64,000 nt of DNA. Source: a virus. Shown piece by piece: positions 7,081-36,351 of this stretch. The stretch lies in IMG/VR virus record IMGVR_UViG_3300013132_000046, positions 4,575-68,574 of that record, one strand, 5' to 3'. Numbering within the stretch: position 1 is the first letter of the stretch; each line of letters begins with the position of its first letter. Made by a program: the position numbers and the translations under genes. Below the pieces are notes generated by a model, which ran no database searches, was not told the DNA's origin, and worked only from the letters and a program-made list of their open reading frames with translations.

Positions 7081-7083
7081 GTA

Positions 7084-8652: not shown

Positions 8653-8672
8653 AATAAGATTCCTTTTGAGAT

Positions 8673-8700: not shown

Positions 8701-8702
8701 AA

Positions 8703-11445: not shown

Positions 11446-11745
11446 TTACGTCTTATGTTCTTCTGTTCTGCCATCTTTCAAATCCGTAATCTCTACGATC
11501 ATTCTCTTTGGGATTTTATTTACCTGAGCTGTTTCATCAGGACCAATAGTATTTGTTACTGCAAAATGATCTTCATCTTCATGCAATACAAAACCAACAG
11601 TAACCATAATTGGTAATGGAGACTTGCTAAATGATTGAGCTTTGCTCTTATCTAGCCACTCCTCACCACCCATAGTTACAGCATCAATCCAGAAGATCAT
11701 AACCAGTTGACAAACTTCTTGTGGATAGGTTACATTCTTAGGCAA
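11446..11745 (-). CDS. Conserved phage hypothetical protein
   Basis: FWIDA..W, TVGF, KIPKRMI pattern; start uncertain (track start 11856 overlaps the RNAP gene). Confidence 0.6.
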   Translation of the reverse strand: MPKNVTYPQEVCQLVMIFWIDAVTMGGEEWLDKSKAQSFSKSPLPIMVTVGFVLHEDEDHFAVTNTIGPDETAQVNKIPKRMIVEITDLKDGRTEEHKT

Positions 11746-14173
11746 AGAAGTATTCAGATCCGAGTACTTCTGAGACATCGAATTCTCCATCTGGTTCTGG
11801 GCAGTCTGGAAGGAAGATTTGGTATCTCTCTTCGGTTTCTTTCTTGAGTTTTTCAAGTTGATTCTCCTTATGAATCTTTACAAACTCTTCTCTTAGAATC
11901 TTATGCATTACATCAATGTCTGTAGCATGTGTTCCATATGAATCATGGATCATAGAAAATGTATTAATACCTACATTCATCATCCTACTGATAGACATAA
12001 ACATATGTGCTGCATCTATCGCATGGATAAAGTTTGGAGAAACAGCGAGATACTGTGCTTTACCGTCGAGATCTTCCGTAACAGTCGAGAATACCAACTG
12101 CTGCCTGTTAAATAGTTCGGCATAAGAAACTCTTTCTAGTACTTCGTTGTATACATGGTGTACTTCAAACCCACTAGGGGTTGTCCATACCAATGGTTTG
12201 TTCATTCCATTTAGAACTTCAGCAACTGAACGCAACCACTCTTTACCTTTATTTGGTGATTCCATAGTTTCACCTAGACCAGCCTGGATAGCACGGCTAA
12301 GTTCTACTACAGCACCTCCTCTGGATTCTTTTGGAACCCAATCCACATGACCCTCTTGCTTTACATACTTCTGCATTCCATAGAATGTAAGACCATATGC
12401 ATCGCACATTGTAGGTCGTTTTGTTACAGCCCGTGGTAATTTATTATTCCAGTTTAAAAGAAATACTTGATACCAATTATTTTCAGGATGCTCTAGCATA
12501 TACTGAGTACTAGAGTCTGCAACATACTGGTATAGATCTTCTGGTTTTTTATTTGGCAGGAGATTTGTAAGCTTTGCTAGCTTCTTGTTTCTCATAATAG
12601 CTGACCAATGTTGACCACCATTGTTAGCACCATCCATTTGAATAGGAAGCTGAGTCATGCCATCCTTCCGGGCAATTTCAAAGATTGCTGCAAGGCGTTG
12701 GAATGACTTGTTCTTTTTCTTTAGTGGATCAATCCATTCTTTATTTGAGTATGGATCTTCTGCAATGCGCAGTAGCATATCAATGTTGTCGTCTACCCAG
12801 TTAACTCTATCTTCAAATGGCTTTTTGTCTTGGTCAAATAGGTTTGCTAGGTGAACCTTAAGCCAGAACAAACCACGTTCAGTTTGTTTCTTTGGCATTG
12901 CAAACTGTACAAGACCACGATCAAAGTCTACTCCTTGTGGAGATAGTAACTCACACACAGAGTATGCACGACCTCTGAAGTCCAGGGTATATGGCATATA
13001 GAAGAAGTCCCAGTCTAGCATTTTCTTTGCTAGCTGTAGCCGTACAATCATTCGACTGCGGGCTTGTTCTTCTTTGTACCATTCTCCCCAAGCTTCATTG
13101 GATTCTTGCATCCATTTAGCTTGTTCTTCTTTTGAACCATCTGTAGGATACGGCCTAGTAAAAGCATAATCCTTGAATGTAAATGCTGGTAGATTTGCAA
13201 GCTTATGATCATTTTCAAACATAGTTTTCATAACAGAATAGACTTGTTTGTTTACTGACCATTCAGTTTCACTAAGGGCATTAAGCCCACGGAGAACAAG
13301 TTCACTTGGTCTTGAGTCCCAATCCTTGGGATCTGCACCTACTGGATGATATCTTTTAATCATCTTCTTCCGAACCCAAGGTGACAAGAAGCCACCATCT
13401 TCTTCGGTAGTGTGCTTTACAGGAGGACAGATCATCGGTCTGTAAACTAGGCAGGCAGTCTCAAGCATTTCGTGACGCTTGCTTAGTTCTTTTAAAATCC
13501 AAGGGGCAAAACAAACCAACAATGATTTCTTGTTCTTACCATTCCAGTGTACCCGTGAAACAAGGATATCACTAGAGAGTGCAATGCGAAGCATGTTATG
13601 ACCAAAGTCTTCCTTCTCTTTTGAGTTTAACTTAGGAAGCTTACCAACTTTAGTTGTAAATGCTTTGCAACGTTTTACAGTCCAGTTCTTAATAAACTTA
13701 GACTGCCTACGCCAATCTTCTGAGAACTTTTTCTTTGCTTGTTGATAAGCAATAATTGAGATTACATCATCAGAGATTAACTTTGATACTTGTTGGGCAA
13801 CCGGAGCATTGTTTGGAATACCTCTAGTATCGTCAAAGTTTTGAATTGTATTCCTGGTTAGGAATAAACGCATAACATTTCTGATTGTAATGTCTGCCAT
13901 CTTAGCAGCACCAACACATAGAAGAGGTGCTAACCAATCAGGCGACTTACGGTTACTACAACATTCATCAATCCACTTCTGATAATAAGGAGTAAGATGT
14001 ATGACTGCACTTTCAAGCAGAAGTTGCTCAGGCTTTCCTTCATCAACAGCACGATTGTACTCCTTCCAGTATTTTTCAATACCATTATCTAGTAGATCTT
14101 CTTCAAATAGCTTTTGATTTATTAATCTATTATCTCTTTGTTCTTTAGATAGTTGTAACCAAGCAGTTGTCAC
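11738..14173 (-). CDS. T7-type single-subunit DNA-directed RNA polymerase (RNAP-A, 811 aa)
   Basis: PMICPP, DFRGRAY, LSPQG.D, motif A MDGANNGGQH, DLYQYVA, motif B RAVTKRPTMCDAYG, WTTPSGF, SPNFIHAIDAAH, motif C MIHDSYGT, C-terminal YFFA. Confidence 0.97.
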   Translation of the reverse strand: MTTAWLQLSKEQRDNRLINQKLFEEDLLDNGIEKYWKEYNRAVDEGKPEQLLLESAVIHLTPYYQKWIDECCSNRKSPDWLAPLLCVGAAKMADITIRNVMRLFLTRNTIQNFDDTRGIPNNAPVAQQVSKLISDDVISIIAYQQAKKKFSEDWRRQSKFIKNWTVKRCKAFTTKVGKLPKLNSKEKEDFGHNMLRIALSSDILVSRVHWNGKNKKSLLVCFAPWILKELSKRHEMLETACLVYRPMICPPVKHTTEEDGGFLSPWVRKKMIKRYHPVGADPKDWDSRPSELVLRGLNALSETEWSVNKQVYSVMKTMFENDHKLANLPAFTFKDYAFTRPYPTDGSKEEQAKWMQESNEAWGEWYKEEQARSRMIVRLQLAKKMLDWDFFYMPYTLDFRGRAYSVCELLSPQGVDFDRGLVQFAMPKKQTERGLFWLKVHLANLFDQDKKPFEDRVNWVDDNIDMLLRIAEDPYSNKEWIDPLKKKNKSFQRLAAIFEIARKDGMTQLPIQMDGANNGGQHWSAIMRNKKLAKLTNLLPNKKPEDLYQYVADSSTQYMLEHPENNWYQVFLLNWNNKLPRAVTKRPTMCDAYGLTFYGMQKYVKQEGHVDWVPKESRGGAVVELSRAIQAGLGETMESPNKGKEWLRSVAEVLNGMNKPLVWTTPSGFEVHHVYNEVLERVSYAELFNRQQLVFSTVTEDLDGKAQYLAVSPNFIHAIDAAHMFMSISRMMNVGINTFSMIHDSYGTHATDIDVMHKILREEFVKIHKENQLEKLKKETEERYQIFLPDCPEPDGEFDVSEVLGSEYFFA

Positions 14174-14373
14174 TCTTCATTATCTCCTTCTTCTTTTGCG
14201 GCGTGGTGTTCCCATTCAGTATCGTAAAGATCTCTGTCACAATGACCACAAATTTGACCCGCATAGTATGGCGCACCATCTACATGTCCACACATTGGGC
14301 AATCCATTCTTGGATTATTATCTTCATCAATATTCATTGAGTTTATTTCCTTAGCTATATACTTGGTTATCAA
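14170..14373 (-). CDS. Small Zn-ribbon protein
   Basis: CPMCG...CGHC; overlaps the RNAP start. Confidence 0.55.
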   Translation of the reverse strand: MITKYIAKEINSMNIDEDNNPRMDCPMCGHVDGAPYYAGQICGHCDRDLYDTEWEHHAAKEEGDNEE

Positions 14374-14424
14374 GGTGTGTATAAAAATGTGGAATAAATC
14401 GACAGGTTATCTGGACTTATTTAT

Positions 14425-15123
14425 TCAACCGACAATAGAGTTGCCCCATACTAGGTGCTTCCAAGATACACTCATGCTATCTGGGATTAGATCATACATA
14501 GCTTGTGCATATTCTTGGATTTCCTTTTGTGCATGAGGATCAGTACGCTGTAGGTAAAACCTTGCACAACTAGATAAATTACCAGTCCAATACCACTCGG
14601 TGTAAACACCCTGAGGTAGCACAAACCGTGCCTGTTCTGGACAAATACCAGACTTAATCAAATAATTGTATGCAACAATTGCATTTTCACAAGCAAGGCT
14701 GTAGACTTCATGTGCATTGTTAGCTACATCAATATTAATATCTGTGTTACTACCCTGCTTAATAGAACCATCAGGCTTTGATCGCCAAGTTGGTTGCATA
14801 AACTCAGGTTCAGAAGAAACATATCGACGGCTGATTTCATTTTCAACAAAGCCAACCTTGTGCTTAAAGAACTGAGTACGAATTGGAATTGGTGCTTTGA
14901 TGTGCCAAGTCAAACTAGTATGAGCAAAGGGAGTCCAGTGCTTGTGCTCTGCAAGATACTTAATTAGTTTCTTATCTTGTAAACTAAGCTTACCATCTAC
15001 TAACTGGGAACGCTTGCCAAAGGATACACGGGCAGCATTAACAACAGATAGATCTGAACCCATATAATCTACTAGTGTAATAAACCCACCGTTACCAACT
15101 CTAGTTGTTTTGTTTAATTCCAT
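14425..15123 (-). CDS. thyX: Flavin-dependent thymidylate synthase
   Basis: GSDLSVVNAARVSF, HWTPF, KHK..ENEISRRY, EQARFVLPQ, HAQKEIQEYA; start probably 15123. Confidence 0.93.
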   Translation of the reverse strand: MELNKTTRVGNGGFITLVDYMGSDLSVVNAARVSFGKRSQLVDGKLSLQDKKLIKYLAEHKHWTPFAHTSLTWHIKAPIPIRTQFFKHKVGFVENEISRRYVSSEPEFMQPTWRSKPDGSIKQGSNTDINIDVANNAHEVYSLACENAIVAYNYLIKSGICPEQARFVLPQGVYTEWYWTGNLSSCARFYLQRTDPHAQKEIQEYAQAMYDLIPDSMSVSWKHLVWGNSIVG

Positions 15124-15553
15124 GTTGTTTAATAGTATTGTAAAATCTTTTAGGTGTTCCGCAGAATACAGGTAAATCATTGAATAGATAGTTTAGTATT
15201 CTACTAGAATTATATACACAATCATTCTTATGTGGTAGATAAAACAAAGTAAACATACCGGAAAGATAACGCATTGCATGATCTTTCTTTGACATATACT
15301 TTAGTGTTTTTATAAAACCAATAAGATCTTCTGCTTGTTTGTTGGATGTACCAACATACAGTATATTACTAAGCGAATTTAATTTATTATCTGCTTTAGC
15401 TGATATAGCTCTTGGATAGTTGTATTGATCACTAAAGTGAAGTACTGTATTTTCTATCTGAACTGAGCAATGATTGTCCCCGTAAATGCTGGATGCAATC
15501 TTGCAGTGTAGTCTGGAGTCCACTACATTGTATGTTCTTAGGTAAACTTCCAA
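15101..15553 (-). CDS. Hypothetical protein, possibly a permuted papain-like peptidase
   Basis: N-proximal HCSV and C-proximal NDCV; weak motif-only evidence. Confidence 0.5.
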   Translation of the reverse strand: MEVYLRTYNVVDSRLHCKIASSIYGDNHCSVQIENTVLHFSDQYNYPRAISAKADNKLNSLSNILYVGTSNKQAEDLIGFIKTLKYMSKKDHAMRYLSGMFTLFYLPHKNDCVYNSSRILNYLFNDLPVFCGTPKRFYNTIKQHGIKQNN

Positions 15554-15650
15554 GAGGAATAGCCTTTCTTACTTCTTCATATGGTAAAATTGGACTACCG
15601 TCCTCTGAGTAATTGATCCTACGAATAGTTATGTCTAGTACAGATATCAT

Positions 15651-15686
15651 AAAAAAGGGCCACACAGGTTTCCCTGTGTGGCCCCT
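15651..15686 (-). terminator. Rho-independent terminator
   Basis: Minus strand GGGCCACACAGG-GAAA-CCTGTGTGGCCC-TTTTTT. Confidence 0.85.
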
Positions 15687-15705
15687 AAGGTTAATCAAGC
15701 GATAA

Positions 15706-16638
15706 TCAAGCGTGTTGTAGTGCGTATTCCATTACGCGGATCTTTGCCTTAGCACGATCCCCAAACAGAATATCATCGAACTTGTTATCAGTCTTGTTGT
15801 TGCCACGATAAATCTGGTCGTGATCCAACCAGTTAGTCACAGCATTTGCCGCAGTCCAGAGGCTTGCTCCGGTACTACGACTTTCTGAATCAAAGGTATT
15901 AGACCACTTGATCATGGTGCTAACAGCCTTTGAGTTGTCATCAGCTTGGTCAGCGTTGACTGGGTTTTCATGGATGTTACCGAACTGACTGATGTAAACA
16001 TTAGTCCAGAAGGTCTGAACAAAGTCAGTAGTAACTTCCCGTTGTGCCATAAGGTTAGCTTGCTTAGCAAACTGCTCAGTACGAACACGGAAGAATTCAA
16101 TACCATCAATCAGTGAGTTAATACGAGCCTGGATATTTCCAGTGTGCTTAATGGTTACCGACATCTTACTGCTACGAAGGGCAGCGTTAAGCGTGTTCTC
16201 ACAGATGACACGCACGGTCGTAGGCAGAACACTCAGGGTATGCTTACCATTATGAGCATTGGTAAGTAGCGTGTAAGGACGAACTTCATCATCGCGGTTA
16301 CCAACATTAAAGCTGTCGCCACGCATGAGGAACCAAATACGCTCACCTTGGTAGAGATTACCTACGGTTTCAATGCGAACATTCTTACCATTAATAGCCT
16401 CTGCCATAGCAGCGACTTCAGAGTTTTGGATAACTCGGTACCCAGAACCAACAATACCAAGCACACGACCAGTATCCTGGCGCACGTTGGAGTAGTACTG
16501 TCCATCAGCCTTGATCTCAGCTTCATGCTGATAAAGTACAGGCTGAGTAGTAACAGTCCAATCAAGGTTAGCATGAGCAATGGCCTCGGTCATGCTCATA
16601 CCATCTACATTACGACCGGCAGTTGTGAAGATTGACAA
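15706..16638 (-). CDS. DUF932-family (phage/plasmid) protein
   Basis: LDWTV, VRQDTGRVLGIVG..YRVIQN, ETVG.L..G..IW, NAHNG, T.VRVICENTL, SLWTA.NAVT..DH; probable TTG start at 16638 after GAAAGGA. Confidence 0.85.
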   Translation of the reverse strand: MSIFTTAGRNVDGMSMTEAIAHANLDWTVTTQPVLYQHEAEIKADGQYYSNVRQDTGRVLGIVGSGYRVIQNSEVAAMAEAINGKNVRIETVGNLYQGERIWFLMRGDSFNVGNRDDEVRPYTLLTNAHNGKHTLSVLPTTVRVICENTLNAALRSSKMSVTIKHTGNIQARINSLIDGIEFFRVRTEQFAKQANLMAQREVTTDFVQTFWTNVYISQFGNIHENPVNADQADDNSKAVSTMIKWSNTFDSESRSTGASLWTAANAVTNWLDHDQIYRGNNKTDNKFDDILFGDRAKAKIRVMEYALQHA

Positions 16639-16819
16639 TCTTATTCCTTTCAATAAATGTTGCGAGTGGGATCCACTCGCTTGAGGTGTCTAAAACCCAC
16701 CCATCAAAGGTGTAGTCTAGGATAATTCCAGCATCAAGAAGCTTGCTTACCATTAATTCCGAAGAGGTACTCATACCACTTGATGGAAGGGTCTGATTCG
16801 ACTTCGTTGGGTTCGTCAT
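16610..16819 (-). CDS. Hypothetical protein
   Basis: Co-oriented ORF. Confidence 0.5.
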   Translation of the reverse strand: MTNPTKSNQTLPSSGMSTSSELMVSKLLDAGIILDYTFDGWVLDTSSEWIPLATFIERNKIVNLHNCRS

Positions 16820-16830
16820 AGTAAAATTCT

Positions 16831-17028
16831 TCAGTCGGATCCGGCTCTGGATCTGGGGTTGCTGCGGCGATTGAGTTCATAGTCAATACAATCTACTTCA
16901 ATTTGATATGCGGGGTGAACATCTCTACCAGAGTTAATAAGACTAAGGAAATAATCCCTAGCCTTGATTAACTCATCGGTAGTTAGAGTATCGAACGATG
17001 GGCGATCTTTGATCTCACTCTGGGTCAT
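16831..17028 (-). CDS. Hypothetical protein
   Basis: Likely start MTQSEIK. Confidence 0.5.
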   Translation of the reverse strand: MTQSEIKDRPSFDTLTTDELIKARDYFLSLINSGRDVHPAYQIEVDCIDYELNRRSNPRSRAGSD

Positions 17029-17305
17029 TGTAATAAGGATCAGGAAGCATATCAAGTTCATAAACGTAGTTGATAAACTCCTTAAGCTTATTCAATTGAT
17101 CTTGAGTAAGGACTAGAATTGGCCTATTTTCCTGAAAGACAGGACCAAAAGCAATGTAAACATTGCGTGGCCTGTAACTAATCTTATCAGTACTAGCTTC
17201 CTTTGTGAAGCCAAAAGTAACCTGATTAGTTTCTTCAAGACCCCTAAGGATTAGGTGTGCTGAGTTAGTTGTACTAAACTTATATTGCTTGTCGTTATTA
17301 AACAT
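17015..17305 (-). CDS. Hypothetical protein
   Basis: Likely start MFNNDK. Confidence 0.55.
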   Translation of the reverse strand: MFNNDKQYKFSTTNSAHLILRGLEETNQVTFGFTKEASTDKISYRPRNVYIAFGPVFQENRPILVLTQDQLNKLKEFINYVYELDMLPDPYYNDPE

Positions 17306-17690
17306 TTGATTCTTCTTTCTCAAACTGACCAAACGAAACATATTCCTGCATGTCGGGACCACCCCAACACTCTGGAATCTGTTCAGAGATTACTTGCTTA
17401 AGTCTTTCTGTCATTTCTGAATCAGTAAGACCCTTGTAATCAATAACCCGTACACCAATTTCTCCAAGACCATCAACCCAGTCGCGCCAGTTGGTTTCCG
17501 TAACATCAGTAAAGCCAAAACCAACTTCGGCTAGCATCTTAGCATTGGTAGTAAGTTTAGCGTTCTGGTCAAGCCAGACGCTCATCTCAATAAACTTGTC
17601 CTTGTTGTCACCGATAAGATGATTAATCTTGTCCAAGCGGTTCTGCCGCTTACGTTCAATAAGTTCTTTGTTAACCATTGTAGTTTGCAT
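17298..17690 (-). CDS. Hypothetical protein
   Basis: 130-aa co-oriented ORF. Confidence 0.65.
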   Translation of the reverse strand: MQTTMVNKELIERKRQNRLDKINHLIGDNKDKFIEMSVWLDQNAKLTTNAKMLAEVGFGFTDVTETNWRDWVDGLGEIGVRVIDYKGLTDSEMTERLKQVISEQIPECWGGPDMQEYVSFGQFEKEESNV

Positions 17691-17817
17691 CCACTTCCAT
17701 AATTTCTTCTGAGATCTTTTCTAGTTGCTCATAAACATGGGTCATGTCACCCACAGTTTCATTACGTTCTTCAACTAAAATCATAAGATTATTAAATGCT
17801 TTGAAAATATCTTCCAT

Positions 17818-18574: not shown

Positions 18575-18666
18575 ATAATCCTTAGGTTTACCTAGGTAAT
18601 ATTAATACTATAGTAATAATAAATACCTAGGTTTGAAGCCCTAGCTATATGCTAGGATATTGGGAT

Positions 18667-18702: not shown

Positions 18703-18707
18703 CTAGG

Positions 18708-19308: not shown

Positions 19309-19642
19309 CCATGTAGGTCTTTATATCATCTCTTACCAGAGTAGATATAGACCTTAGACTATCTACTCTTGGTTATCCAATAACCGATGAAACGGTACAT
19401 ATTAGGGGTGTTTCATGTCCCTAACTGACTTCCGGCTTGAATTGAGTCCCCCATGTAGATCCGTCAACCCACACGGGACGCACTATGCTTAGGCTTCTAT
19501 TTATACTCGCATAGTCGAGTAATCTTGAGGTATTGTTGGGGTATTGTCTCTCTATCCTTGGCCTTGCGGCTACATGCTAGGGGATAGTGTTCCCTATATT
19601 TACTGCCAACAGCAGCGAGTCCAACACCATTACCTCTTGAAG

Positions 19643-19677
19643 AAAGATATCCCACAGGTTTCCCCGTGGGATACCAC
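19643..19677 (-). repeat. 35-bp exact repeat, copy 1 (GAAA-loop hairpin)
   Basis: aaagatatcccacaggtttccccgtgggataccac, identical at 19960-19994. Confidence 0.9.
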
Positions 19678-19959
19678 TACCTATAACTGTTGTACAAGTC
19701 GGTAAGCCTTGCACATGAGTCTATATGTTATTCAGATATACCCTATAGACAGGATATATCTAAAGAGGGTGTTTACAGTTCCCACAAACATGATCAAGTG
19801 TTTATAGGTAACACATAACTGCGTGTTTTCAATACACGCATCGAATGCTTTTCTATGAAGAAGGCTGTAGAGGCATTGGCCAGCCTACTAAAGGTTATCT
19901 TATACGCAAAGCGTAAAATAGGGAACCACCCTCAAAGATGCCAATACGACATCTTTAGT

Positions 19960-19994
19960 AAAGATATCCCACAGGTTTCCCCGTGGGATACCAC
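19960..19994 (-). repeat. 35-bp exact repeat, copy 2
   Basis: Identical to 19643-19677. Confidence 0.9.
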
Positions 19995-20301
19995 GCTAGA
20001 CTTGGTTCTAGCACGGGTGGAATGTACCACCTATATCTTCGGTCTTGGTTATACTGGCGGAAGCGCACCAGTAGAGATCTCTGCAGCCTTGATGGGCATT
20101 ACCCCGGGCCGTGGCTTGGCTGGGATTTTAACCGTGTTTTAAGCCACAGTCAACCACTAGTTTGTTGCCCTAGTTGGCTTAATCCAACTACCCGGGCAGG
20201 GCTGGCACCTAGAATGCCATTAGAAGCCACGGAACTGGTGACCCCTACCATGTGGGGGTTGACCAGTGCATGACCTCTAATGGAAGCCTAGGGGCTTGGT
20301 A

Positions 20302-20343
20302 TAAAAGCAGGGGCACCCAAGCAAGATTGCCTGGATGCCCCTG
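20302..20343 (-). terminator. Rho-independent terminator
   Basis: Minus strand CAGGGGCATCCAGGCAA-TC-TTGCTTGGGTGCCCCTG-CTTTTA after the 20362 stop. Confidence 0.7.
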
Positions 20344-20361
20344 TTTCGTCTGTTTCCAGCG

Positions 20362-20574
20362 TCAGAGCTGGGGTTCGGACTGGGTTTCAATCAGTCCACG
20401 GGCTTCAGCCTCGGCCAAGATCCCCTGAATCTTCGATTCGGAGGTGACCTTACCGCGCTGGACCTGGATGACCAGATTCAGCAGCTCCTTGTCGCCCATC
20501 CGGGTGTAATCCACAATCTGCGGACGGGGGAGGGCCACAATGGCCTTCGACGTAAAGGTGATGTTGATGGGCAT
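20362..20574 (-). CDS. Hypothetical early protein
   Basis: Likely start MPINITF after GAAAGGA (track start 20631); GC-rich codon usage. Confidence 0.6.
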   Translation of the reverse strand: MPINITFTSKAIVALPRPQIVDYTRMGDKELLNLVIQVQRGKVTSESKIQGILAEAEARGLIETQSEPQL

Positions 20575-20835
20575 CACCAATCCTTTCTGGGAACCACTGA
20601 TGATAGTGAACATTCCCTTTGGGTCCAACATCAGCAGCCACTCGCGCGAGTGATCTTACTGATGTAAAATCGCAAGAGTGGCGCGACGCGAAGCGGAGTC
20701 GCCACAACGGGAGGGCAACCAGAGGCAAGCCCTGCGCTGAACGGAGCGTGTGGCTCCGTAAAGTCCGCTCTAGGGGCACTTATCCCTAGGGGATAATATT
20801 ATTAGTTAATTGAACCTATGAGTCAGGTTATTGGC

Positions 20836-22725
20836 TTAGCCCATGAAGTTGCGGGAAGCCATGAAGCGATGCTCGTTGATGGGCTTCCATCCCTCCTTCC
20901 AGATCTTGTGGTTGAGGTGGACCTGGTACTGAGCCAGGTTGTTTGCAAGGCGGGGTTCGGTCATGTACATCTTCTTGTACAGAACCTTCCACGCCATCTT
21001 GACGAAGCGCACACCCGCACAGGAAGTGCCGTGCGAGTCATGGATTGGTGAGTATGGCAACCCCTTGATTGCCATGAGCCGAGCGATGCCTGCCACATGG
21101 GCAGCATCTTCCGAGTGAATCACCAGCGGCGGGGCTGCGCTGGCCTGCTTGATCAGCTTACGCTTCATCAGCGTAACCTTGATCTTGCGGTCCCCAACCT
21201 CAAACTCCACGCGGTTGGGCTTTTCATCCTTGTCCCAGTCGTACTGGAACACGAATGACTTGGCACCGTTGTGGTGATGCCAAGTGAAGACCTGGCCCTT
21301 GTCATGTGCCTTGCTATAGGCATCACGAACCAAGCGGATAAACTCCCTCAACTTGGGGAACATCCGCAACAGTGCCGCATGGTACGCCTTGGAAACTTCC
21401 AAGGCATCCTCCCATGCCGTGTCCAGCCTGCCAACCCAAACATCAATCCAGTCTGGGTTGAATGCCTCTGGGTCCTTGGCCAACAATGCCTTGGCCTTCT
21501 TTGGGCAATAGTTATTGCCCTCTGAGATGCGGTCCCAGTCATCTCCGTCCTTGAGGATGAGGCCCTTGGCCAAGCCGCCCGTTCCTGCGCCATAACCAAG
21601 GCGCATGACAAAGTACTTGGCCTCTTCAGGGTGGAAGAACTCCAACAAGGTTCCGCCATAGCCAGCCTGTGCTGACTTGGCAACCTCCTTGTACAATGAC
21701 TTCTTCCTCTTGGTGCCACCAAGGTTGGTGTACCAAGCCAAGGTTGAGTCACCGCACAGCCCAGCAATGCGCTGATAGCCATCGCTGGTGCAGTCTTGCT
21801 GGAACACATAGGACGTTGCCCCCGTGTCTTCCAGCTCAGCCATTGCCACGGCCAATTCAAACCGGGCAACGATCTTGGTGACCTTGCAGCCGAACCAGTC
21901 AGCCGCACTCTGGAGATGGGCAATAGCCCCATCTCGTGGGTGGAAGGGCTGTTCCTGGGTAGGAACAAACCCAATCTTCTCCGACTCCGCATGGGTCATC
22001 GCCATGCGGACGCGGAAGATCAGTTCACGGTAGTTACGGGGAGTAACCCCATCCTCCTTGGCAACCGCCCAGCAAGCTGCCAAGTTTGCCGCCTTGTCTT
22101 TACCAAGGCTGTAAGCCTTGGCGTAGCCCATCAGGCTACGAACCAACACACCGCCCATGTGGGCAAGCGTGTCGGGGAAGTAGAAGCGGCGACGCTTGAA
22201 GCAGTAGAACCTAAACACATCGGTCCCCTGCTTCTCGGCCTGTGCCACAGCCTTGAGAGCCGTGGCAAACTTCAGCCCTCCGCCTTCGGCACCCGGCATC
22301 TTCTGCCCAATGCTGTACAGGCGGGAAGAACCAAACGCCTTCAGGAATCGGAGTGCTTCCGGCCTGAAGGCGTACTGTACGCCCTGAAGGAAGTTCAGGG
22401 TGTCTGCGTCTGATGCAGACAATCCGGGCATTTCCTCCCAAACAGGAGGTTCTGCCCGAGTCAAGAGCGCAGTCTTGGGCACAACCCAGATGCGCTCTGA
22501 ACGATGGCCGTCATCCGTGACCACTTGCTCACGGCTGATGGCGTACTCAGGCCGCAGCAGCAGCTGCTCCACGGCCTTCTTGGCGGCAGCTCCCAGCTCT
22601 GCCTCATTGCCAAGGAACGTGCATGCGTCCTTGGCGACGGCCCAGCACCGCTGGATGGTGAGCGGGTATGTTACCCGCTGAACCAGCGCGCTGAGCATTG
22701 CACTGACAATCTTCTTATTGGTCAT
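20836..22725 (-). CDS. Second, divergent single-subunit RNA polymerase (RNAP-B, 629 aa)
   Basis: Motif A QQDCTSDGYQ (D311), SLYKEVA, motif B AKYFVMRLGYG (K370/Y378), PPLVIHSEDAAH, motif C PIHDSHGT (D563); GAGG SD. Confidence 0.9.
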   Translation of the reverse strand: MTNKKIVSAMLSALVQRVTYPLTIQRCWAVAKDACTFLGNEAELGAAAKKAVEQLLLRPEYAISREQVVTDDGHRSERIWVVPKTALLTRAEPPVWEEMPGLSASDADTLNFLQGVQYAFRPEALRFLKAFGSSRLYSIGQKMPGAEGGGLKFATALKAVAQAEKQGTDVFRFYCFKRRRFYFPDTLAHMGGVLVRSLMGYAKAYSLGKDKAANLAACWAVAKEDGVTPRNYRELIFRVRMAMTHAESEKIGFVPTQEQPFHPRDGAIAHLQSAADWFGCKVTKIVARFELAVAMAELEDTGATSYVFQQDCTSDGYQRIAGLCGDSTLAWYTNLGGTKRKKSLYKEVAKSAQAGYGGTLLEFFHPEEAKYFVMRLGYGAGTGGLAKGLILKDGDDWDRISEGNNYCPKKAKALLAKDPEAFNPDWIDVWVGRLDTAWEDALEVSKAYHAALLRMFPKLREFIRLVRDAYSKAHDKGQVFTWHHHNGAKSFVFQYDWDKDEKPNRVEFEVGDRKIKVTLMKRKLIKQASAAPPLVIHSEDAAHVAGIARLMAIKGLPYSPIHDSHGTSCAGVRFVKMAWKVLYKKMYMTEPRLANNLAQYQVHLNHKIWKEGWKPINEHRFMASRNFMG

Positions 22726-22750
22726 GGTTACCTCTAAGAAAACTTGTGGT

Positions 22751-22825
22751 CATTTAAACTGTTGACCACTTGCAGTTACCCCAAAGGGGAAGCCCAAGGT
22801 AAGACACTTAAGCCTTACCTTGGGG
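22751..22825 (-). promoter_or_regulatory. Triple-hairpin leader element, copy 1 (upstream of RNAP-B)
   Basis: AACTG..CAGTT, CCCC-AAA-GGGG and CCCAAGGTAAG-ACACTTAAGC-CTTACCTTGGG; repeated at 23190-23261. Confidence 0.7.
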
Positions 22826-22830
22826 TAAAG

Positions 22831-23160
22831 TCAGCGAACGCAGGAGATCAGGCGGTTAACATTGAATGACCGCTTCTGTGGAGATCTCCCGCTTGGGATT
22901 TCAAAACCAACAACACACTGCCCAACAACCTCAGTAACGATGAACTCGTCAAACCGCCGAAATTCACCATCAATCTTCATGAACCGGACTGAGTACAGCC
23001 GATCACCGGGCTGAAAGACGTGCCCGATGAACCACGGCTGCGGGTTCCGATTGTATCCCGCTGCCTTTTTTTCTTCCTCCGAGGTTGTGAGGAAGATAGC
23101 AATCATGCCACCCAGGATGAGGAGGACAGCCGCAAAGCAGATGTAGAACAAGATTTCCAT
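22831..23160 (-). CDS. Hypothetical early membrane protein
   Basis: N-terminal TM helix MEILFYICFAAVLLILGGMIAIFL; track start 23181. Confidence 0.6.
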   Translation of the reverse strand: MEILFYICFAAVLLILGGMIAIFLTTSEEEKKAAGYNRNPQPWFIGHVFQPGDRLYSVRFMKIDGEFRRFDEFIVTEVVGQCVVGFEIPSGRSPQKRSFNVNRLISCVR

Positions 23161-23189
23161 CTGAGTCTCGCTTTCAATCAAGGCTAGGC

Positions 23190-23261
23190 CATTTGAACTG
23201 TGGCCCTTACAGTTACCCTAAACAGGGAATCCCAAGGTAAGACACTTAAGCCTTACCCTGG
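23190..23261 (-). promoter_or_regulatory. Triple-hairpin leader element, copy 2
   Basis: AACTGT..ACAGTT, CCCT-AAAC-AGGG and CCAAGGTAAG-ACACTTAAGC-CTTACCCTGG. Confidence 0.7.
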
Positions 23262-23274
23262 AGTAGTACTGCGA

Positions 23275-23748
23275 CTATCTAACAAATTCTTCGTGCTCGC
23301 ACGGCTTCGAGACCAACTCATCATGTGGAATCACCGGATATGGTGATTCGACAAAACCATAAAACTTGTTAACCCATGGAGCGGGAATCCGCATCTTGTC
23401 CCATGTAACATAGGCATAGTACCAGTCCCGCATGACCCATGTTGATGTAACTACGTCGAGAAGCGTAATTGCTTCTCCGTTAATTTCGACAAAATCTAGA
23501 AATGGTTCCTCGCCCCACACCCACCCTTTGATGTAGGTGGGATCTCCCCTAACAATCCTGGACAACAGTGAACGAACACTCCAACACTCCCTTGCTAGGC
23601 GCAACCAACGCACGCGCTGGTTGCGTTCGCGGTAATGCTGGGTTTCGGACGAAACAATGGACAGAATCAAACGAACCCACAACTCAATGGTAACAAAGAA
23701 GTGCTTCACGATCAAACTCGCTTTCTGGTACAAATGTACCAAATTCAA
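23275..23748 (-). CDS. Hypothetical early protein
   Basis: 157-aa ORF filling the space between the giant gene and the leader repeat. Confidence 0.55.
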   Translation of the reverse strand: MNLVHLYQKASLIVKHFFVTIELWVRLILSIVSSETQHYRERNQRVRWLRLARECWSVRSLLSRIVRGDPTYIKGWVWGEEPFLDFVEINGEAITLLDVVTSTWVMRDWYYAYVTWDKMRIPAPWVNKFYGFVESPYPVIPHDELVSKPCEHEEFVR

Positions 23749-23832
23749 GCCAAAAACCCAGGGCTACGGGGGAAAATTACCAACGATGATAATCTATCCA
23801 CCCCGACGAATTTTTTTGACCCCTAAGTCGAT

Positions 23833-26800
23833 TTACAGTAAAGCTTCTGGTGCCTGTATTGGCTGGTTAGCCTTTTGTAAATCTACGGATGTGGAAGTTT
23901 GTTGTGGTTGTGGTTGCTGTGGTTGTGGCTGTGGCAACTGTGGTTGCTGTGGTTGTGGCAATTGTGGTTGCTTAGGTTGTGGCAATTGTGGTTGCTGTAG
24001 TCTTTCCGAACTACGCTTCAAGTATTCTTCTAGATGTCTTTTTGGAATATTATTATATTGTGTTTCTCCTCGCAATACTGCTGGATACTCTGGGAACATT
24101 TCCCTAATTAGTGCATTTGTTGTATCTTCTACTGGTGTAGACATTGAATCTATAATTGCGGATATGTCTCCCTTGGCTCCTCTATACGAGCCTCCTGAGG
24201 TTGGTGAGCTAGTTCCCCATGCTTGTGCTACGGCTACTCTAATTGGTAGTGAGTAACCGTTGGCAATTAGCCAAGGCCCCAATGCTTTATAAGCGGCCCA
24301 GGTTTTTGCATCCCAAGTTTCTTGTGGTGATGCAAATGCTTCAACCATTTTGTATATATCTTTAAATTGTTGCATTAAGCCAGCTTCAGCAACAGAGCTA
24401 AGCATACCACCCTGTGATCTACCGGTTGCTGCTGCTATACTAGCATTAGCAATTAACCCTAGTATGTTATTACTAAATATTGGATTACGCATAACATACC
24501 TAGCAATTTCGCTGATATTGTCTCTTCTATTAAGTTTTTCTAGGATATCTTCATAACTTAATGTGCCTCTAGCCAAAGCAAGTACAAGGTTATAAGTAAA
24601 GTCTAGTAAACTTGCAGTAGCAAGCATCATACCCATTTTTGGAAAACTAGCTGTACTACCTCTTCTAATTATTTGCTGAGCAACAAACAAAGAAGTATAT
24701 GATTTATAGAATGTTAGTAGATCGGTAGCTAAGTTATCACTTCGTGGGGCATCTAGTGCTTTACGGACAACCATACCTCTTGTTGTGTTAAATTCTTGGA
24801 ATTTAGCCATAGCTGTTTTAGCTAGACTTAGTTCAGCTAGTAATTCATTCCTAGTTAAGAATGGTCTTGGTAGTGGTCCGGTTGATCTTGGTGAGGTTGA
24901 GTCTTTTAGTTCTAGTTCGACATCCATCATATCTTGGAATAGAATAACACCTCTAAATGTATTCTTTTCTGTTCTGATATATCGCAATGCCTCTAGTCTC
25001 TTGCCCTCCAGTAAACCAGATTGAATTATATATACAGCAACTTCTTGGTCAATAAAACCTAACTTGTTTTGCCGCAGTAATTCTTTAATTTGACCAACTG
25101 TGGTTGGTTTAGTTGCGGCAGCTCTATAGGCATCTCGGAATCTATTAAGATGTCCCATTCTTTCTAGTTTAACTATTAATCTATTACCGGCAGCATCCAT
25201 AGCAACTCTTACAGATTTCATTGCACTGGAGTTGGAACGGGATCTATTTAGTTTCCATCTATCCCAGAATCCTAATTTTTCAATTAGATCTGAAGATGGA
25301 TCCATAGATAAGAGATTGCTTGGTAGCATTGGTGAAGTAGTTTCTTCAACAAATGATAAAGTATTTTGAGCAAGTCTTCTAATCTTTCTTTGTCTGATTG
25401 GGAAGAATTGTCTTTTTGTTCTTCCACTTGCGTCTGTTACTTTTCCTGGGAAACCAGAAGTATCTACTATAGCATTTGCCGCATTAACTATACCATCTTC
25501 TGCCATATCTCTTAGGAATCTAAAGGAAGATATAACACCAACAAACGGGTTGCTTTCTTGGAACATTTGCGACATTGTACTCATTACACCCTCTACCATA
25601 TAAGTAGCTGTGTTGATATTCATACCGAACCGCATTAATACAAGTGTTTTAGCTCGGTTGTTCCAATCTGCTAGGCTTTGGCCCATGTCTGTGGTATCTC
25701 GTACTAGATTACCCTTTGTTTCTAGTAGCGCAAGTCTAAGTCTATTGATACCTTGACGCATTAAAGCGTTGTTATCAATCTTTAGGTTTCTTTCTCCACG
25801 TTGATCAAATAGGGTAATGTTTCTGCTATTGGAATTAACTGTTTGATCATTCTCAGCTTCAAACATATCTAAGATCTGAGATATATTGAAGTATGCATTT
25901 GGAATACCTGATAGCTGCTGAACCATTTTACGTTCAATAGCATCATATGCAATCTTACCAGTACCCTTAGCCAATGTTGATAGATTTGTTTCAAACAACT
26001 TAAGCATGTTTGGGTTAGTTGATAAGAATACATCTCTGCTGGTTAGGAATACAGAATCCTGTTTAAATAGCGCAGAAGACTTTGTAACTCTATTTAGGAA
26101 CTCAATGGTTAGTACATCAGATGGACCCAAGATACCAGTCATTTCTCCAGTTAAACCATGTGGCATGTTTCTATCAGAAATACTAAAGTGTTTCCTTACG
26201 TCATCTCTTTGGAACTTAGTATTCCATCTTTCGGCTGTTTTTTCATCTGTTGGAATTAGGAATGCTTTCTTAAAAGCTAGTACAACCATGTCCATATTTT
26301 GGGTTGTCATTCCACCAAATGTTTTTTCTAAGGTAACATCACCATCTCTAGTTTGCCACAGTATTTTATGAATTATTTCCTGTACATCTTTATGGATTCT
26401 AACCAAAGATTGTGTAGAAGCATAATCTGCTACTGTTGTAATACCTGTTCTACCAATTGATTGTTTTGCAGCTGTTCTTACAGCCCAATTTATAATTGCT
26501 TCTCTACCACCATTAGCAATAGTATCCTTACCGGAAATAATATCAGCCACAACCTTGTTTAAAGATGCTTCATCTGCTACTAGCATTTCTTCTGGATTTA
26601 GTGGAATTATTCCAGAAGTATATCCTAATAGTGGAGAGAATGTCGCATACTTCCCATTAGTATCTAACATTGCTATATTCTTATTAACCAGTTCTTGTTT
26701 AATTATATCAAACGCATCTCTAGCTAGGTTACGATCCTGTAATAATGAAGTATCTCTTAGTCTAACCGGGAACACATCATTTTTACTAGTTTTTTCTAAC

Positions 26801-35800: not shown

Positions 35801-36351
35801 AAACCCTGACTTTGGTTTAAAAGGCTTTCTACGTTTTCTTCTCTTTTCTTTAAACGCTCTTCTTCAATGATTATTTTTTCTTGTAGATCAGCAACTATAT
35901 CTCCGTCACCAGCTGCTTCGTGAACCTTAACAAGTTTTTCTAAATATTCAATATGGTTTCTTCGGTTTATAGCAGCCGTAGCAAAACTTTTTTCACCATC
36001 TAACTCAACACCACGCTTCTTAAGTAGATCAAAGAACTTAATTGCTTTTTCGTCACCTAAGGCATTTCTAATTACCCTACCAATACTACCTTTTACATTA
36101 TCAGATGTCAAGAAAGATTCATCAATAATGTCTGTTAGTTCATAGAATATTGTTACTAACTCTTTCTTTTCATCTTCTGTTAATGGATTCTTATCTACTT
36201 TTGTTAGGAACCCCAGTTTATCTAGTGTTTCAGAATCTGATTTAATTGTTGCTTCTGTCTTAACAAACTCCATTGCCTTGGATACGGACATACCTTTGGC
36301 TATAAGCTCTATCAACTTTCTCTGTAAACTGGGTAAATCGCAAAGTGGCAT
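23833..36351 (-). CDS. Giant internal virion/ejection protein (4172 aa) with DEDDy exonuclease, N4-vRNAP-like RNA polymerase and zincin-like domains
   Basis: Follows gp14/15/16-like genes. Exo IDIET(612-614)/HNGNGFD(704)/YAEND(821-825); RNAP motif A SDYKYNGKHNILAML (D1360,G1365) and motif B KEFLKGAVTPAFYQAG (K1486,Y1494); EELVH..DEFFA (2740-2803). Confidence 0.8.
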   Translation of the reverse strand: MPLCDLPSLQRKLIELIAKGMSVSKAMEFVKTEATIKSDSETLDKLGFLTKVDKNPLTEDEKKELVTIFYELTDIIDESFLTSDNVKGSIGRVIRNALGDEKAIKFFDLLKKRGVELDGEKSFATAAINRRNHIEYLEKLVKVHEAAGDGDIVADLQEKIIIEEERLKKREENVESLLNQSQGLLEKEFILENFIYIAQLIEESGKTSTVIDADSKVEAKQQQIKAKELDIRLLEGKIAALESKIILTKDKAKKKSFKDEKDKAKKDRKEAVKQLGKLNSELKKALTSLSIASLKDITGIDMTKRVESLTKFKFNLEKELNKVQARMMELGLTSLVRDVRDVSMTSQQMIINQRKLMTIATEGMNLRLSYLNNEIERSGAVVVSQVEEMFGEFAVKTVIGKREKLEDGKTEDLSPMNEAEVKEASQIWRNQLLSSYDGSFFTEDPALLTEEALNTLKSFAVGRGVVDASSPEAIDPTFAPSLTADQVAVHPDNNRGTIPAKNRVKSHREAARVIEGSVRRLRSVFGFKYFNGTINEKLLRQVLGDRLMDIHPEAFQKAYLKTMQRRVISQVGIDDKLSMARNLIKLHGGDPETMPDFADGFDKDNSRLITIDIETFGDVNDPDRKVDGIYSIQIATYDSSNPAALTRSNEVLVNNGTDLVDVKTTEAKERQVLTNDQVTSVLKRIEELQNMGYKLITHNGNGFDLPQLRFFTSDSDLLARVSLRSFDLLANITSQAPGINMFEKSRVRGKKLKELAKNNLPTKTPVLSYPDPTTGKPRIQFTTGYPVNLVTGEEIKLGEGGITELWRRGQETGDFFEFDAYAENDTETTLALFLHMSDPGISSLALQGSDLDEVTTISITPPKSNLLLNNSIEFTGLIPLDTLSDITKITPKVTDIVEQTYMVSSYGYDANAVYDILINWYLKSLLGDPTTNEAKINAVINGLEGRAAEETNFDRSLRRIALENQRAINPLLDELFTKYGFVLSLNYNINDRNEAVVSINDNLDGSMPVGEFKQDGLFSNSVRSAERYENAVLDSFIKFISKSEVKNRFNKAMLDRVKAEPRKETESESQYWERVILDYFKPFVPGLSALQDFGNGSLDWKPADEVGIAFAQVMMDQKPDISVTDVLLQRGNEVESVMQMDDRTLLARGGKGRRKIFGMPSKDKVNMAQPHSLDNEELAYEGWRLQQRVNAILDMDLSDPAVLSSVYSWLETPLTQEPRDPISFFARQQVLDISPDVTVRSPFAAIPNLAERRLLVEEHLYEIPRLLMSFNHDCTYMGMKAPPRFFKDTQPVFYMQDFMSAGGPTAAALMGGAIDQLAHMISYGLMTPDGVKELENVLDRGMEILRTNGDAAWNTSNKSDYKYNGKHNILAMLIAFNDGNFKVMDDLLQVLKATDETGAPATFAGKKVVVAGKDLGDPRFMFIDILLGTSDKNSPYFGTNMLNEMATNPSKFNITPEDAELAKALRAKMGDPSDEKNRAQLKEFLKGAVTPAFYQAGYPGILQGLQEKVKETNLDLTEDEIEFLARMSVRSQLIGSSRLIDEVIGFSRENIQDLRNILLSNAQRLNSSTYSSTLNGSKALGEARSRMERLGSMQEFISVSAKETAKSVARVRGIVNPSNRKLEEIEQEIEAELLTKWKARLDKASSIWEGKAIDSMSPEEYATFIYEMNVALAGGEEAAQNHLMIYALNRRATTPFVLDEDVADIHRFVMGVHIDKEDYTRYLNKEIYFRYGVETASGRNHMVSWYGLGPESSKYAQPRVMEPGGDYNPYGMWKIEEKQAARADFEQIFARQMLLNLAKFYRPTIVTGYKPEINENRTKYFLDLQARSAKEIEAAEVSRYLEKAPKIRKYTVGGIEITAKERNDRNKKAAGTAYARLRFRTLASDTVSSREEIILDPTVDGYGALRPAYADIDFTQRGIYALAAAQHAARIKQNQALQQLAEVEGALSADPNGFVPESLRGYKSPYEPQNMPMIPQSSDDVIGAIALGQKERVEQNAIRLQNVLTEFAKLHGLDESLEAKDWGRIFAVMQLRNKALNPAIDTLQKASQSKTSIDEVLEKDELVREARIRYIDGFLRTAGISSATLSGLKRFSPLDLMATLEERTLSLDTINDIKATFGEEPGWLQVLTYLGTRGKIERLMSMEFGITLDPGVIVRGRQGRAGIPSTTQVPVVAFGREVMHLYQVIGASETAKQVATKMIVGTPYETDPNVKYDSNGFVIIESLDPRTDSALYKKIWNATLLEKQSIAEELLKNFYFAVNSENRVTLRDKNNKVFREDEQLEKLTVQGPTDPYAQITSQVDNPSTLWLNTPQGLIQMLNNLENYKLFSEIELAIQTNKEIYGFKTEIDSVIQEKEAQMFEKMRDMEDELSESIAFLYETDPGTVKPAMLKDYRRVNIDGKSKDVLDLGYYLRSSGDNPATITITIPTSDTYIVAGRAFKTVKQQKINISVADAPFLTVLTEVLVKAQQLGFEDKASQIGDFIVWANNNKTQLPKSVKSPNALIKIAAMMYKVAGNDAAERSVYRYFNAEGLKTSQKQQIDDVVSALMYVMDNEPHDNAKEYYVTRAAMERVVAEPRNLTSDAVFVRAMATASGKELTPAVVSNIRAAVEDFIRPQLEPEIADEIYSDASSSAVYTDPDDFIMSFSNPAHRESAEKFVNYLDGLVSGGVISARARDMKLMLIGNLAKHNPDIVEELTIESFAGEGKDGIMFAAKRNGRYVIGQNITAMKVTAENEILFRFAEELVHIARLKYVKTNSPEWRKVTGLFDTTRSKPVIREMLLAMNNGKPYENLEQEVEYALSNTDEFFAHMGAFFLLRNVLGSKEAITKLRDKYAPVGRAYRLWENAFYAIKKMAQRVLITFNKLNDNTEYSSFMKEAEDVVMAVIGTGMSTRADVGNPDAQLNAFKRVVATENNRQLTPTEMADLNILISELRVEEQNYKIESSKPIPNMATLAAIDSKINDLKQKIREKDINTFMNISVGFVARTLADLDDFSTTKGSRLTERDLLDNGFRRAFLVGLIQRGIDRRGERADEGTAAGIIRSIPFVGSELMISTILQNNLLQGFMNATSLTYNSPFAPLAILTELIDQASVTTKGSLQSDVSGIQNDKLLIDPYVYNVMIKSADLSSEYPNNLNMQHAIIQDVVRNLLGIRPILTGAKEQKHVESLTGAFRLLTDKTVELQTQVGMLEKTSKNDVFPVRLRDTSLLQDRNLARDAFDIIKQELVNKNIAMLDTNGKYATFSPLLGYTSGIIPLNPEEMLVADEASLNKVVADIISGKDTIANGGREAIINWAVRTAAKQSIGRTGITTVADYASTQSLVRIHKDVQEIIHKILWQTRDGDVTLEKTFGGMTTQNMDMVVLAFKKAFLIPTDEKTAERWNTKFQRDDVRKHFSISDRNMPHGLTGEMTGILGPSDVLTIEFLNRVTKSSALFKQDSVFLTSRDVFLSTNPNMLKLFETNLSTLAKGTGKIAYDAIERKMVQQLSGIPNAYFNISQILDMFEAENDQTVNSNSRNITLFDQRGERNLKIDNNALMRQGINRLRLALLETKGNLVRDTTDMGQSLADWNNRAKTLVLMRFGMNINTATYMVEGVMSTMSQMFQESNPFVGVISSFRFLRDMAEDGIVNAANAIVDTSGFPGKVTDASGRTKRQFFPIRQRKIRRLAQNTLSFVEETTSPMLPSNLLSMDPSSDLIEKLGFWDRWKLNRSRSNSSAMKSVRVAMDAAGNRLIVKLERMGHLNRFRDAYRAAATKPTTVGQIKELLRQNKLGFIDQEVAVYIIQSGLLEGKRLEALRYIRTEKNTFRGVILFQDMMDVELELKDSTSPRSTGPLPRPFLTRNELLAELSLAKTAMAKFQEFNTTRGMVVRKALDAPRSDNLATDLLTFYKSYTSLFVAQQIIRRGSTASFPKMGMMLATASLLDFTYNLVLALARGTLSYEDILEKLNRRDNISEIARYVMRNPIFSNNILGLIANASIAAATGRSQGGMLSSVAEAGLMQQFKDIYKMVEAFASPQETWDAKTWAAYKALGPWLIANGYSLPIRVAVAQAWGTSSPTSGGSYRGAKGDISAIIDSMSTPVEDTTNALIREMFPEYPAVLRGETQYNNIPKRHLEEYLKRSSERLQQPQLPQPKQPQLPQPQQPQLPQPQPQQPQPQQTSTSVDLQKANQPIQAPEALL
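23899..23997 (-). repeat. Tandem 24-nt repeat encoding a (Q/K)QPQLPQP C-terminal tail
   Basis: Repeated tgtggttgctgtggttgtggcaa(c/t) units. Confidence 0.85.

Follow-up and report, generated by a model that had tools for sequence, protein, structure and literature searches.

A T7-type freshwater podophage genome with two single-subunit RNA polymerases and a giant protein that probably contains a third

The stretch of DNA analysed here (64,000 nucleotides, hereafter the window) covers bases 4575-68574 of the 68,574-bp virus record IMGVR_UViG_3300013132_000046, which is rated complete by CheckV. The source phage is a member of an uncultured freshwater podophage clade with genomes of about 62-70 kb, and the window represents nearly its whole genome. 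All 37 gene-like open reading frames (ORFs) of at least 150 aa lie on the minus strand. To three of the ORFs an earlier note, made from the letters alone, had assigned the motifs of single-subunit RNA polymerases (RNAPs), and all three are indeed present:

11738-14173, minus strand: RNAP-A, canonical T7-type single-subunit RNA polymerase, 811 aa (Pfam and PHROGs)
20836-22725, minus strand: RNAP-B, divergent short single-subunit RNAP, 629 aa (Pfam, family profile)
23833-36351, minus strand: giant protein, 4172 aa, probable ejection or internal virion protein (ORF, homologues, position)

By analogy with phage N4 these genes point, in a reading that we hold to be about evenly poised, to a T7-type phage with three single-subunit-type polymerases and an N4-style transcription cascade.

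RNAP-A is, as judged from its sequence, an ordinary and complete T7-type RNAP, as the earlier note had described it. It matches the Pfam family RNA_pol (PF00940) at 1.8e-85 (287.9 bits, cut-off 22) and phrog_414 at 1.2e-162, and the four motifs T/DxxGR, A, B and C are readable in canonical order (GR at 401-402, the motif A Asp in QMDGANNGGQ, K585..Y593-G, and HDS at 743-745). The Pfam family for the N-terminal domain, RPOL_N, is matched at 28 bits, slightly below its cut-off of 30.1. A tblastn search with RNAP-A matched 2740 phage records, all with Autographiviridae-type RNAPs, the best showing about 29% identity over the full length. Within the clade, all eight records with a completeness of 90% or more have it, as do 13 of the 23 records overall; those with no full-length match are fragments rated 31-63% complete.

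The T7-type virion and replication apparatus that had been claimed for this phage proved correct, because PHROG scans reveal T7-type sets of both kinds. The replication set includes a primase-helicase (6.6e-157), a family A DNA polymerase (1.4e-122), a gp2.5-like single-stranded DNA-binding protein and an exonuclease, as well as a ribonucleotide reductase and ThyX, and the virion set comprises a head assembly/scaffold protein, the major head protein, tail proteins of phrog_446 and phrog_457 (tail tube A and B), a fibre and the large terminase (6.6e-86). Three ORFs in a row past the terminase gene are very large (1318, 1511 and 4172 aa), the giant gene being the last, and none of the three matched a Pfam or PHROG family. 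The two before the giant gene are:

36367-44858, minus strand: two very large ORFs, 1511 aa and 1318 aa, preceding the giant gene, candidate ejection-cassette partners (ORF list)

RNAP-B had been presented as a divergent RNAP, and this is borne out by its matches to PF00940 (4.5e-13, 49.3 bits, cut-off 22) and phrog_414 (6.9e-19) and by an invariant active site. A phmmer search of the Protein Data Bank (PDB) sequences matched mitochondrial RNAPs only (E 0.013, near motif C), a word-index search found only two homologues, and tblastn against 50,697 phage records gave no match. A family of 24 full-length members could nevertheless be assembled from relatives, and in hhalign comparisons it aligned to the RNAP-A clade (E 1e-29, residues 88-629 to 277-811), to the N4-type virion RNAP (vRNAP) family (E 7e-12), and to gp15 (P 3.9e-5) and gp16 (P 1.4e-7) of N4. 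The arginine of the GR pair, D311 and G316 of motif A, K370 and Y378 of motif B and D562 of motif C are invariant in 24 of 24 members, and the motif C histidine (H561) is kept in 23. Because the family aligns to RNAPs and its active-site residues are invariant, RNAP-B has the look of a functional RNAP; the alignment to RNAP-A leaves most of the T7-type N-terminal domain without a counterpart. In size and make-up it is a one-chain counterpart of N4 RNAPII.

The earlier note had named the absence of RNAP-B from close relatives as a possible objection, and this is not the case. In 25 of the 25 distinct related contigs that extend at least about 2 kb beyond the giant gene, an RNAP-B-type ORF of 585-715 aa follows that gene at a distance of 0.6-4.3 kb; eleven further contigs end earlier. 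Six of the 25 (L006, L008, L030, L031, L032 and L039) joined the RNAP-B family only in an iterated hidden Markov model (HMM) search, and none of these six divergent positional orthologues has a Pfam RNAP match of its own, their membership resting solely on the family HMM. The ORFs of L031, L038 and L061 are cut by the contig end.

By analogy of position, the giant protein probably belongs to the ejection or internal virion proteins: its gene takes the place of those for gp16 and gp50, which close the ejection cassettes of T7 and N4, respectively (PMC13434306). Twenty-seven homologues of 3060-4233 aa were collected, and a profile search of 1.84 billion protein representatives returned 69 relatives, all of about 3400-5500 aa or fragments. 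As a side observation, its C-terminal tail is a Pro/Gln repeat derived from a short tandem DNA repeat (window 23880-24010, minus strand), where the read depth of other sequencing runs piles up, probably through unrelated low-complexity matches. Within the giant protein an exonuclease-like domain is located upstream of a polymerase-like core, and the core contains four conserved motifs:

33862-34539, minus strand: DEDDy 3'-5' exonuclease-like domain, residues about 605-830 (conservation, sub-threshold Pfam)
30952-32904, minus strand: polymerase-like core, residues about 1150-1800 (hhalign with controls, VIA-align)
32533-32538, minus strand: invariant His1272-Asp1273 after a hydrophobic strand, motif C-like, preceding motif A (D in 53 of 53, H in 52 of 53)
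32233-32274, minus strand: motif A candidate, D1360 to L1373, with Gly at D+5 (D1360 and G1365 invariant in 47 of 47)
31870-31908, minus strand: motif B, [K/R]1482-x3-K1486-x7-Y1494 (conservation; aligned to motif B of N4 and of the RNAP-B family)
31090-31149, minus strand: T/DxxGR-like motif T1735-R1739, then GP[E/Q]xSK, after motif B (R1739 in 53 of 53)

The DEDDy residues D612, E614, D704, Y821 and D825 of the first domain are invariant in 25 of 25 giant-protein members, and its sub-threshold Pfam matches are exclusively to 3'-5' exonuclease families (RNase_H_2 0.0018, DNA_pol_B_exo1 0.0068, DNA_pol_B_exo2 0.034).

The polymerase-like core, which the remote tests place at about residues 1270-1760, emerges from profile comparison. 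The N4-type reference was an alignment of nine diverse Schitoviridae mini-vRNAP domains, which we regard as valid because its invariant columns include the known catalytic residues R424, D559, R666, K670 and D951. With a 21-sequence alignment of giant residues 1050-2150, hhalign aligned motif B to this family (P 0.0032). With 60 sequences the best match again fell on motif B (score 48.2, P 3.6e-4), pairing D1417...K/R1482-K1486-Y1494 of the giant protein with D610...R666-K670-Y678 of N4, and the second on the T/DxxGR region (score 41.6, P 0.002), pairing ALN...T1735-R1739...GPExSK with T420-R424...NPQ..K. In the controls, scores were 23.9 for the reversed template and 12.6-19.1 for 20 shuffles of the columns. 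The RNAP-B family likewise aligns to both regions (P 0.0042 and 0.0053), and the core contains, in a fingers subdomain, an N4-type motif B in the sense of R-x3-K-x7-Y. Narrower or longer comparisons were not significant: the 21-sequence alignment against N4 alone gave a probability of 0.44% (P 0.13), the core against the narrow RNAP-A clade P 0.063 and P 0.37, and the full-length giant family against a low-diversity full-length N4 alignment a best P of 0.16. A comparison of the core with the family A DNA polymerase of the phage itself gave P 0.28.

Structure comparison leads to the same residues. Two AlphaFold models of the core were built from different alignments, the second covering residues 1100-1900 with 30 sequences, including a more distant subgroup (pLDDT 64.4). 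In VIA-align searches over 48,161 chains, T7 RNAP ranks first for both. For model 2 it scores 8.6, followed by human mitochondrial RNAP at rank 2 (7.3, the alignment starting at model residue 262, that is, residue 1361), N4 mini-vRNAP residues 301-447 at rank 10 (6.0, spanning model residues 130-678), N4 RNAPII at rank 24 (5.5) and yeast mitochondrial RNAP at rank 28 (5.4). No DNA polymerase is among the best 50 matches listed for either model. Each of these Z values, taken on its own, falls in the ambiguous range for helical folds, but the matches as a whole appear to exceed chance because five single-subunit RNAPs lie within the top 28 of 48,161 chains and do so on the residues picked by the profiles. 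The demand of the earlier note that the giant region should model as a polymerase palm was answered in part, the region being recovered partly as RNAP fingers and palm by VIA-align; taken as a whole, the refuting conditions set by that note turn out mostly in favour of its reading.

Conservation sharpens this picture. Among 53 members of the giant family, K/R1482, K1486 and R1739 are kept in 53, D1718 in 50 and Y1494 in 48, the rest having F or H at the last position. In an alignment of 47 rows that reaches down to 15% identity, D1273, D1360, G1365, D1417, K1486 and R1739 are kept throughout. D1360 fits as motif A by its invariance, its spacing of 126 residues to motif B and the point at which the superposition with mitochondrial RNAP begins, although hhalign gave no significant support for it; because of this fit, the series motif A, DxY-type motif, motif B would be canonical. 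A glycine at D+5 of motif A corresponds to the ribonucleotide-accepting state, as established for T7 RNAP and Pol I. Other motif candidates were dropped: D1297 and D1913 as motif A, being conserved in just 31 and 36 of 53 members, respectively; the Asp of a WDI string, which is Lys in the protein of the window; and D1541 as motif C, which the T7 superposition places inside the fingers. A protein-atlas look-up placed PF00940 clusters only at ranks 6 and 10 (score 0.89, low recognition), which is a lead and not evidence. Taken together, we consider it quite likely that the core has an RNAP-type fold, and less so that it is active; profiles, models and the N4 analogy make a third, ejected RNAP within the giant protein probable.

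Downstream of the giant gene the composition changes abruptly, the ORFs next to it forming a block of about 52-63% GC between 20.3 and 23.75 kb, as opposed to about 38% elsewhere. This GC step recurs in the relatives. The block and its borders hold the following elements:

20300-23750, minus strand: GC-rich block with ORFs 23275-23748 and 22831-23181, RNAP-B and ORF 20362-20631 (composition)
20308-20343, minus strand: strong terminator-like hairpin closing the block, a 16-pair stem then a T run (hairpin scan)
22787-22827, no strand assigned: 41-nt repeat with an 11-bp perfect hairpin, upstream of RNAP-B (direct repeat family D14, inverted repeat I6)
23225-23265, no strand assigned: second copy of the 41-nt repeat, upstream of ORF 22831-23181 (D14, 93% identical)
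19443-19520, minus strand (sense strand): pistol self-cleaving ribozyme in the ORF-poor stretch past the block (Rfam RF02679, 47 bits, gathering score 34.5)

Repeated GC-rich hairpins stand upstream of early genes both in the window and in the relatives. In the first 5 kb past the giant gene of contigs L006, L010, L011, L012, L030, L035, L039, L041, L052, L054, L055 and L064, the GC-rich block holds between one and four GC-rich hairpins whose stem is of the CCCCTAGG...CCTAGGGG type, often preceding small genes and RNAP-B, the stem sequence varying by subgroup and the hairpin being kept. Around the early region of the window, sigma-70-like sites are not enriched (20 sites, with 17.8 +/- 4.4 in shuffled sequences). 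No listed site falls within 20826-23833, upstream of the first genes of the block; the scan used the consensus of one promoter type and is thus weak evidence. As for a phage promoter, no exact 10-12-mer stood out in multiple copies, and the repeat search yielded no family with many intergenic copies. The pistol ribozyme is kept in four of the five relatives scanned, 0.9-2.4 kb past RNAP-B (L006 13948-14014, L011 25860-25926, L012 26653-26716 and L052 27756-27808; none in L062), in genomes whose proteins are just 20-40% identical to those of the window, and it may cleave a long early transcript where the next block of genes begins. The phage also carries genes for tRNAs Lys-UUU, Leu-UAA, Arg-UCU and Ile-UAU (6378-8776, minus strand, in the replication block), with a fifth, weak Rfam match at 7085-7155; all read A-ending codons in an AT-rich genome, and the GC-rich block would not need them.

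The earlier note had also raised the possibility of a contig that is chimeric near 20.3 or 23.8 kb. The 24 sequencing runs compared consist of DNA contigs, and those of four independent lake-water runs could be placed on the window. One independent-run contig covers 21343-24163 without a mismatch and bridges the 23.8-kb junction; together with the gene order and GC step recurring in relatives, this led us to discard a chimera. At the other border, contigs of the four runs end or restart at 19519, 19651-19994 and 20168, and none spans 20099-20167. These breaks could reflect 46-nt repeats, a strain-variable spot or physical genome ends. Two copies of such a repeat, which contains a GC-rich hairpin with a GAAA loop, occur in the ORF-poor region at 19632-19677 and 19949-19994, and a similar hairpin with a T run behind it is found at about 15655-15686, after a 315-aa ORF; these hairpins are probably terminators of a phage polymerase.

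Based on these features and on the N4 programme, a cascade can be proposed in which the giant protein would be packaged and then ejected with the DNA and would transcribe the GC-rich block. The block would supply RNAP-B, which would transcribe the following AT-rich small genes and RNAP-A, and RNAP-A in turn would transcribe the replication and virion genes, a step for which N4 uses the host RNAP. Such an N4-style cascade is plausible and fits the gene order, the unenriched sigma-70-like sites and the repeated GC-rich hairpins. With such a cascade the phage could do without the host RNAP. We may go further and picture a small podophage that is fully independent of the host RNAP, with an ejected 4172-aa RNAP that has rearranged motifs and a DEDDy exonuclease of its own, stands apart from the N4 lineage and reads a hairpin-punctuated, GC-rich RNAP-B operon, the pistol ribozyme cutting at its border; this extended proposal is possible but doubtful, and under it the giant enzyme would possibly be a proofreading or RNA/DNA-processing RNAP.

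Several observations weigh against an RNAP in the giant protein and against the cascade built on it. Neither the whole protein nor its core matched an RNAP family in Pfam or PHROGs, and PHROGs scans of the distant family members P0089 and P0069 found no RNAP either. The four Pfam families of the N4 vRNAP (PF21769, PF21894, PF21624 and PF21867), carried by 120 of 120 N4-like vRNAPs among those listed, gave no match to the giant protein with E up to 0.1, nor to its core alone with E up to 1. No RNAP was found among PDB sequences by phmmer with the whole protein or by hmmsearch with a 25-sequence profile, and none is recognisable among the 69 relatives from the 1.84 billion representatives. In a Foldseek search against the PDB both core models met unrelated helical proteins only (best E 0.036 and 0.36), and the hhalign probabilities of the two 60-sequence matches are low (37% and 14%). 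In full-length comparison the giant protein shows no similarity to the N- and C-terminal domains of the N4 vRNAP, and as far as sequence goes it is not a member of the N4 vRNAP families. The canonical order T/DxxGR, A, B, C with both catalytic aspartates was not found in the core: the HD motif precedes motif A, the T/DxxGR-like motif follows motif B, and a canonical motif C was not identified, the candidates being D1273 or D1718. Because of this order the core could be inactive or otherwise employed, and we cannot tell whether it represents a rearranged palm or the sign of a different activity. Hence, of the RNAP domain claimed for the 4172-aa protein, what stands is the support from remote profile and structure tests and from invariant residues, and what does not is its recognition by standard searches and a motif C. 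As to the cascade, terminator-like sites are enriched (24, against 8.7 +/- 3.2), so the hairpins before early genes could be terminators and not promoters, and if the genome ended at 19.5-20.2 kb the GC-rich block would be at the opposite end of the genome from the small AT-rich genes.

A rather unlikely alternative to the proposed cascade is that the host RNAP reads the GC-rich block, RNAP-B and RNAP-A split the middle and late genes, and the giant core is an entry motor or a relic. In T7-type phages early genes are transcribed by the host RNAP, and a block whose composition is so sharply unlike the rest of the genome would, together with its codons, suit a GC-richer host before the phage tRNAs, which read A-ending codons only, are made; that standard searches never call the giant protein an RNAP, and that its motif order is non-canonical, would also agree with this explanation. 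It meets the lack of enrichment of sigma-70-like sites and their absence from 20826-23833, a weak point given the single consensus used, and the invariance of active-site-like residues at just 15-23% identity: because the key residues are invariant among sequences so divergent, the core is better seen as an enzyme than as a relic.

If an enzyme, the giant protein could still be an injected DNA-directed DNA polymerase or repair module made of a DEDDy exonuclease and a family-A-like polymerase. In Pol I, too, a polymerase core comes after an exonuclease, the DEDDy residues are invariant in all 25 members, and motif B is common to all family A polymerases; we nevertheless judge this highly improbable, since no DNA polymerase appears in the best 50 matches listed of either structural search, where five single-subunit RNAPs do, the phage's own family A DNA polymerase fails to align with the core, the T/DxxGR-plus-PQ-like motif aligns to the N4 vRNAP and the RNAP-B family, and the residue at D+5 of motif A is Gly and not Glu. 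Improbable, too, is a giant protein with no polymerase domain, its matches having arisen by chance in a long internal virion protein that is mostly helical, in view of two independent kinds of test that converge on the same residues, which are the invariant ones, of real hhalign scores about twice the best of the 21 controls, and of T7 RNAP leading the ranking for two models from different alignments with five RNAPs in the top 28.

Compared with N4 and the Schitoviridae, the phage shares a giant protein of more than 3000 aa that ends the ejection cassette and whose middle third holds a core of the single-subunit RNAP type (residues 998-2103 in N4, about 1150-1800 here), a core whose motif B and T/DxxGR region align to the N4-type family, and a presumed programme that continues with a small T7-like RNAP devoid of the N-terminal domain and alignable to gp15 and gp16. 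It differs in that its giant protein matches none of the four N4 vRNAP Pfam families and shows no similarity beyond the core, in the other motif order and the added DEDDy exonuclease domain, in RNAP-B being one chain whereas RNAPII is a heterodimer (gp15 and gp16), in the third, full-length T7-type RNAP in place of the host enzyme, and in replication and virion genes that are T7-type and not N4-type. In the main text of a 2026 paper on the full-length N4 vRNAP the word 'exonuclease' does not occur (PMC13434306). With the Autographiviridae (T7, phiKMV) it has in common the one-strand genes, a phage RNAP (theirs being about 29% identical to RNAP-A over the full length) and the T7-type replication and virion gene set. 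In contrast, the best-matching records of that family are of about 37-46 kb, against 68.6 kb here, and its described members have a single-RNAP layout, whereas this genome has a second RNAP, a 4172-aa last cassette protein with exonuclease-like and polymerase-like domains, a GC-rich block, four or five tRNAs and a pistol ribozyme. The proposed logic, injected and then phage-made polymerases, is also that of the phiKZ-type jumbo phages, which, as described in PMC4666361 and PMC10612078, use an injected polymerase for early genes and phage-made ones later, independently of the host RNAP. Their RNAPs are multisubunit and beta/beta'-related and their genomes exceed 200 kb, unlike the single-subunit type of this 69-kb podophage.

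If the proposed cascade is true, the injected-polymerase strategy arose, or was kept, outside the Schitoviridae, and the origin of the N4 programme and the relationship between T7 and N4 become testable. To our knowledge, N4 is so far the sole model for a virion-carried single-subunit RNAP, and its late genes still need the host RNAP. A natural three-polymerase cascade, presumably with three orthogonal promoter sets, would be of use to synthetic biology, and the fusion of an exonuclease to a polymerase core, as well as the rearranged motif order, would be new to the enzyme family. The earlier note knew of no described example, and in agreement with this, the literature covered was not found to describe a T7-type phage that combines a virion RNAP with two other RNAPs, although the supplementary lists of N4-like genomes in PMC10654107 could hold members of the clade; likewise, tblastn with the giant core against 50,697 deposited phage genomes gave no match, and no relative is among them. 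In another podophage group, large proteins have been guessed to be vRNAPs from size and helical content only (PMC10747016).

The clade recurs in lake metagenomes, and within it the three genes evolve at sharply different rates. With the near-identical G001 set aside, RNAP-A is 51-86% identical among relatives; the giant protein is 21-40% identical in nine of the ten others compared by BLASTP, G022 having only a 147-residue match; and RNAP-B, which evolves very fast, is at most 26% identical to the copy of the window or invisible to BLASTP. Relative to the replication module, the giant gene and the GC-rich block seem to follow a course of their own, through exchange or through separate evolution. 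Mosaicism is evident in these genomes: the closest RNAP-A (86%) belongs to G012, whose giant protein is among the most distant (22%) and whose RNAP-B escapes BLASTP, and the closest giant protein (40%) is that of G002 and G004, yet their RNAP-B likewise escapes BLASTP.

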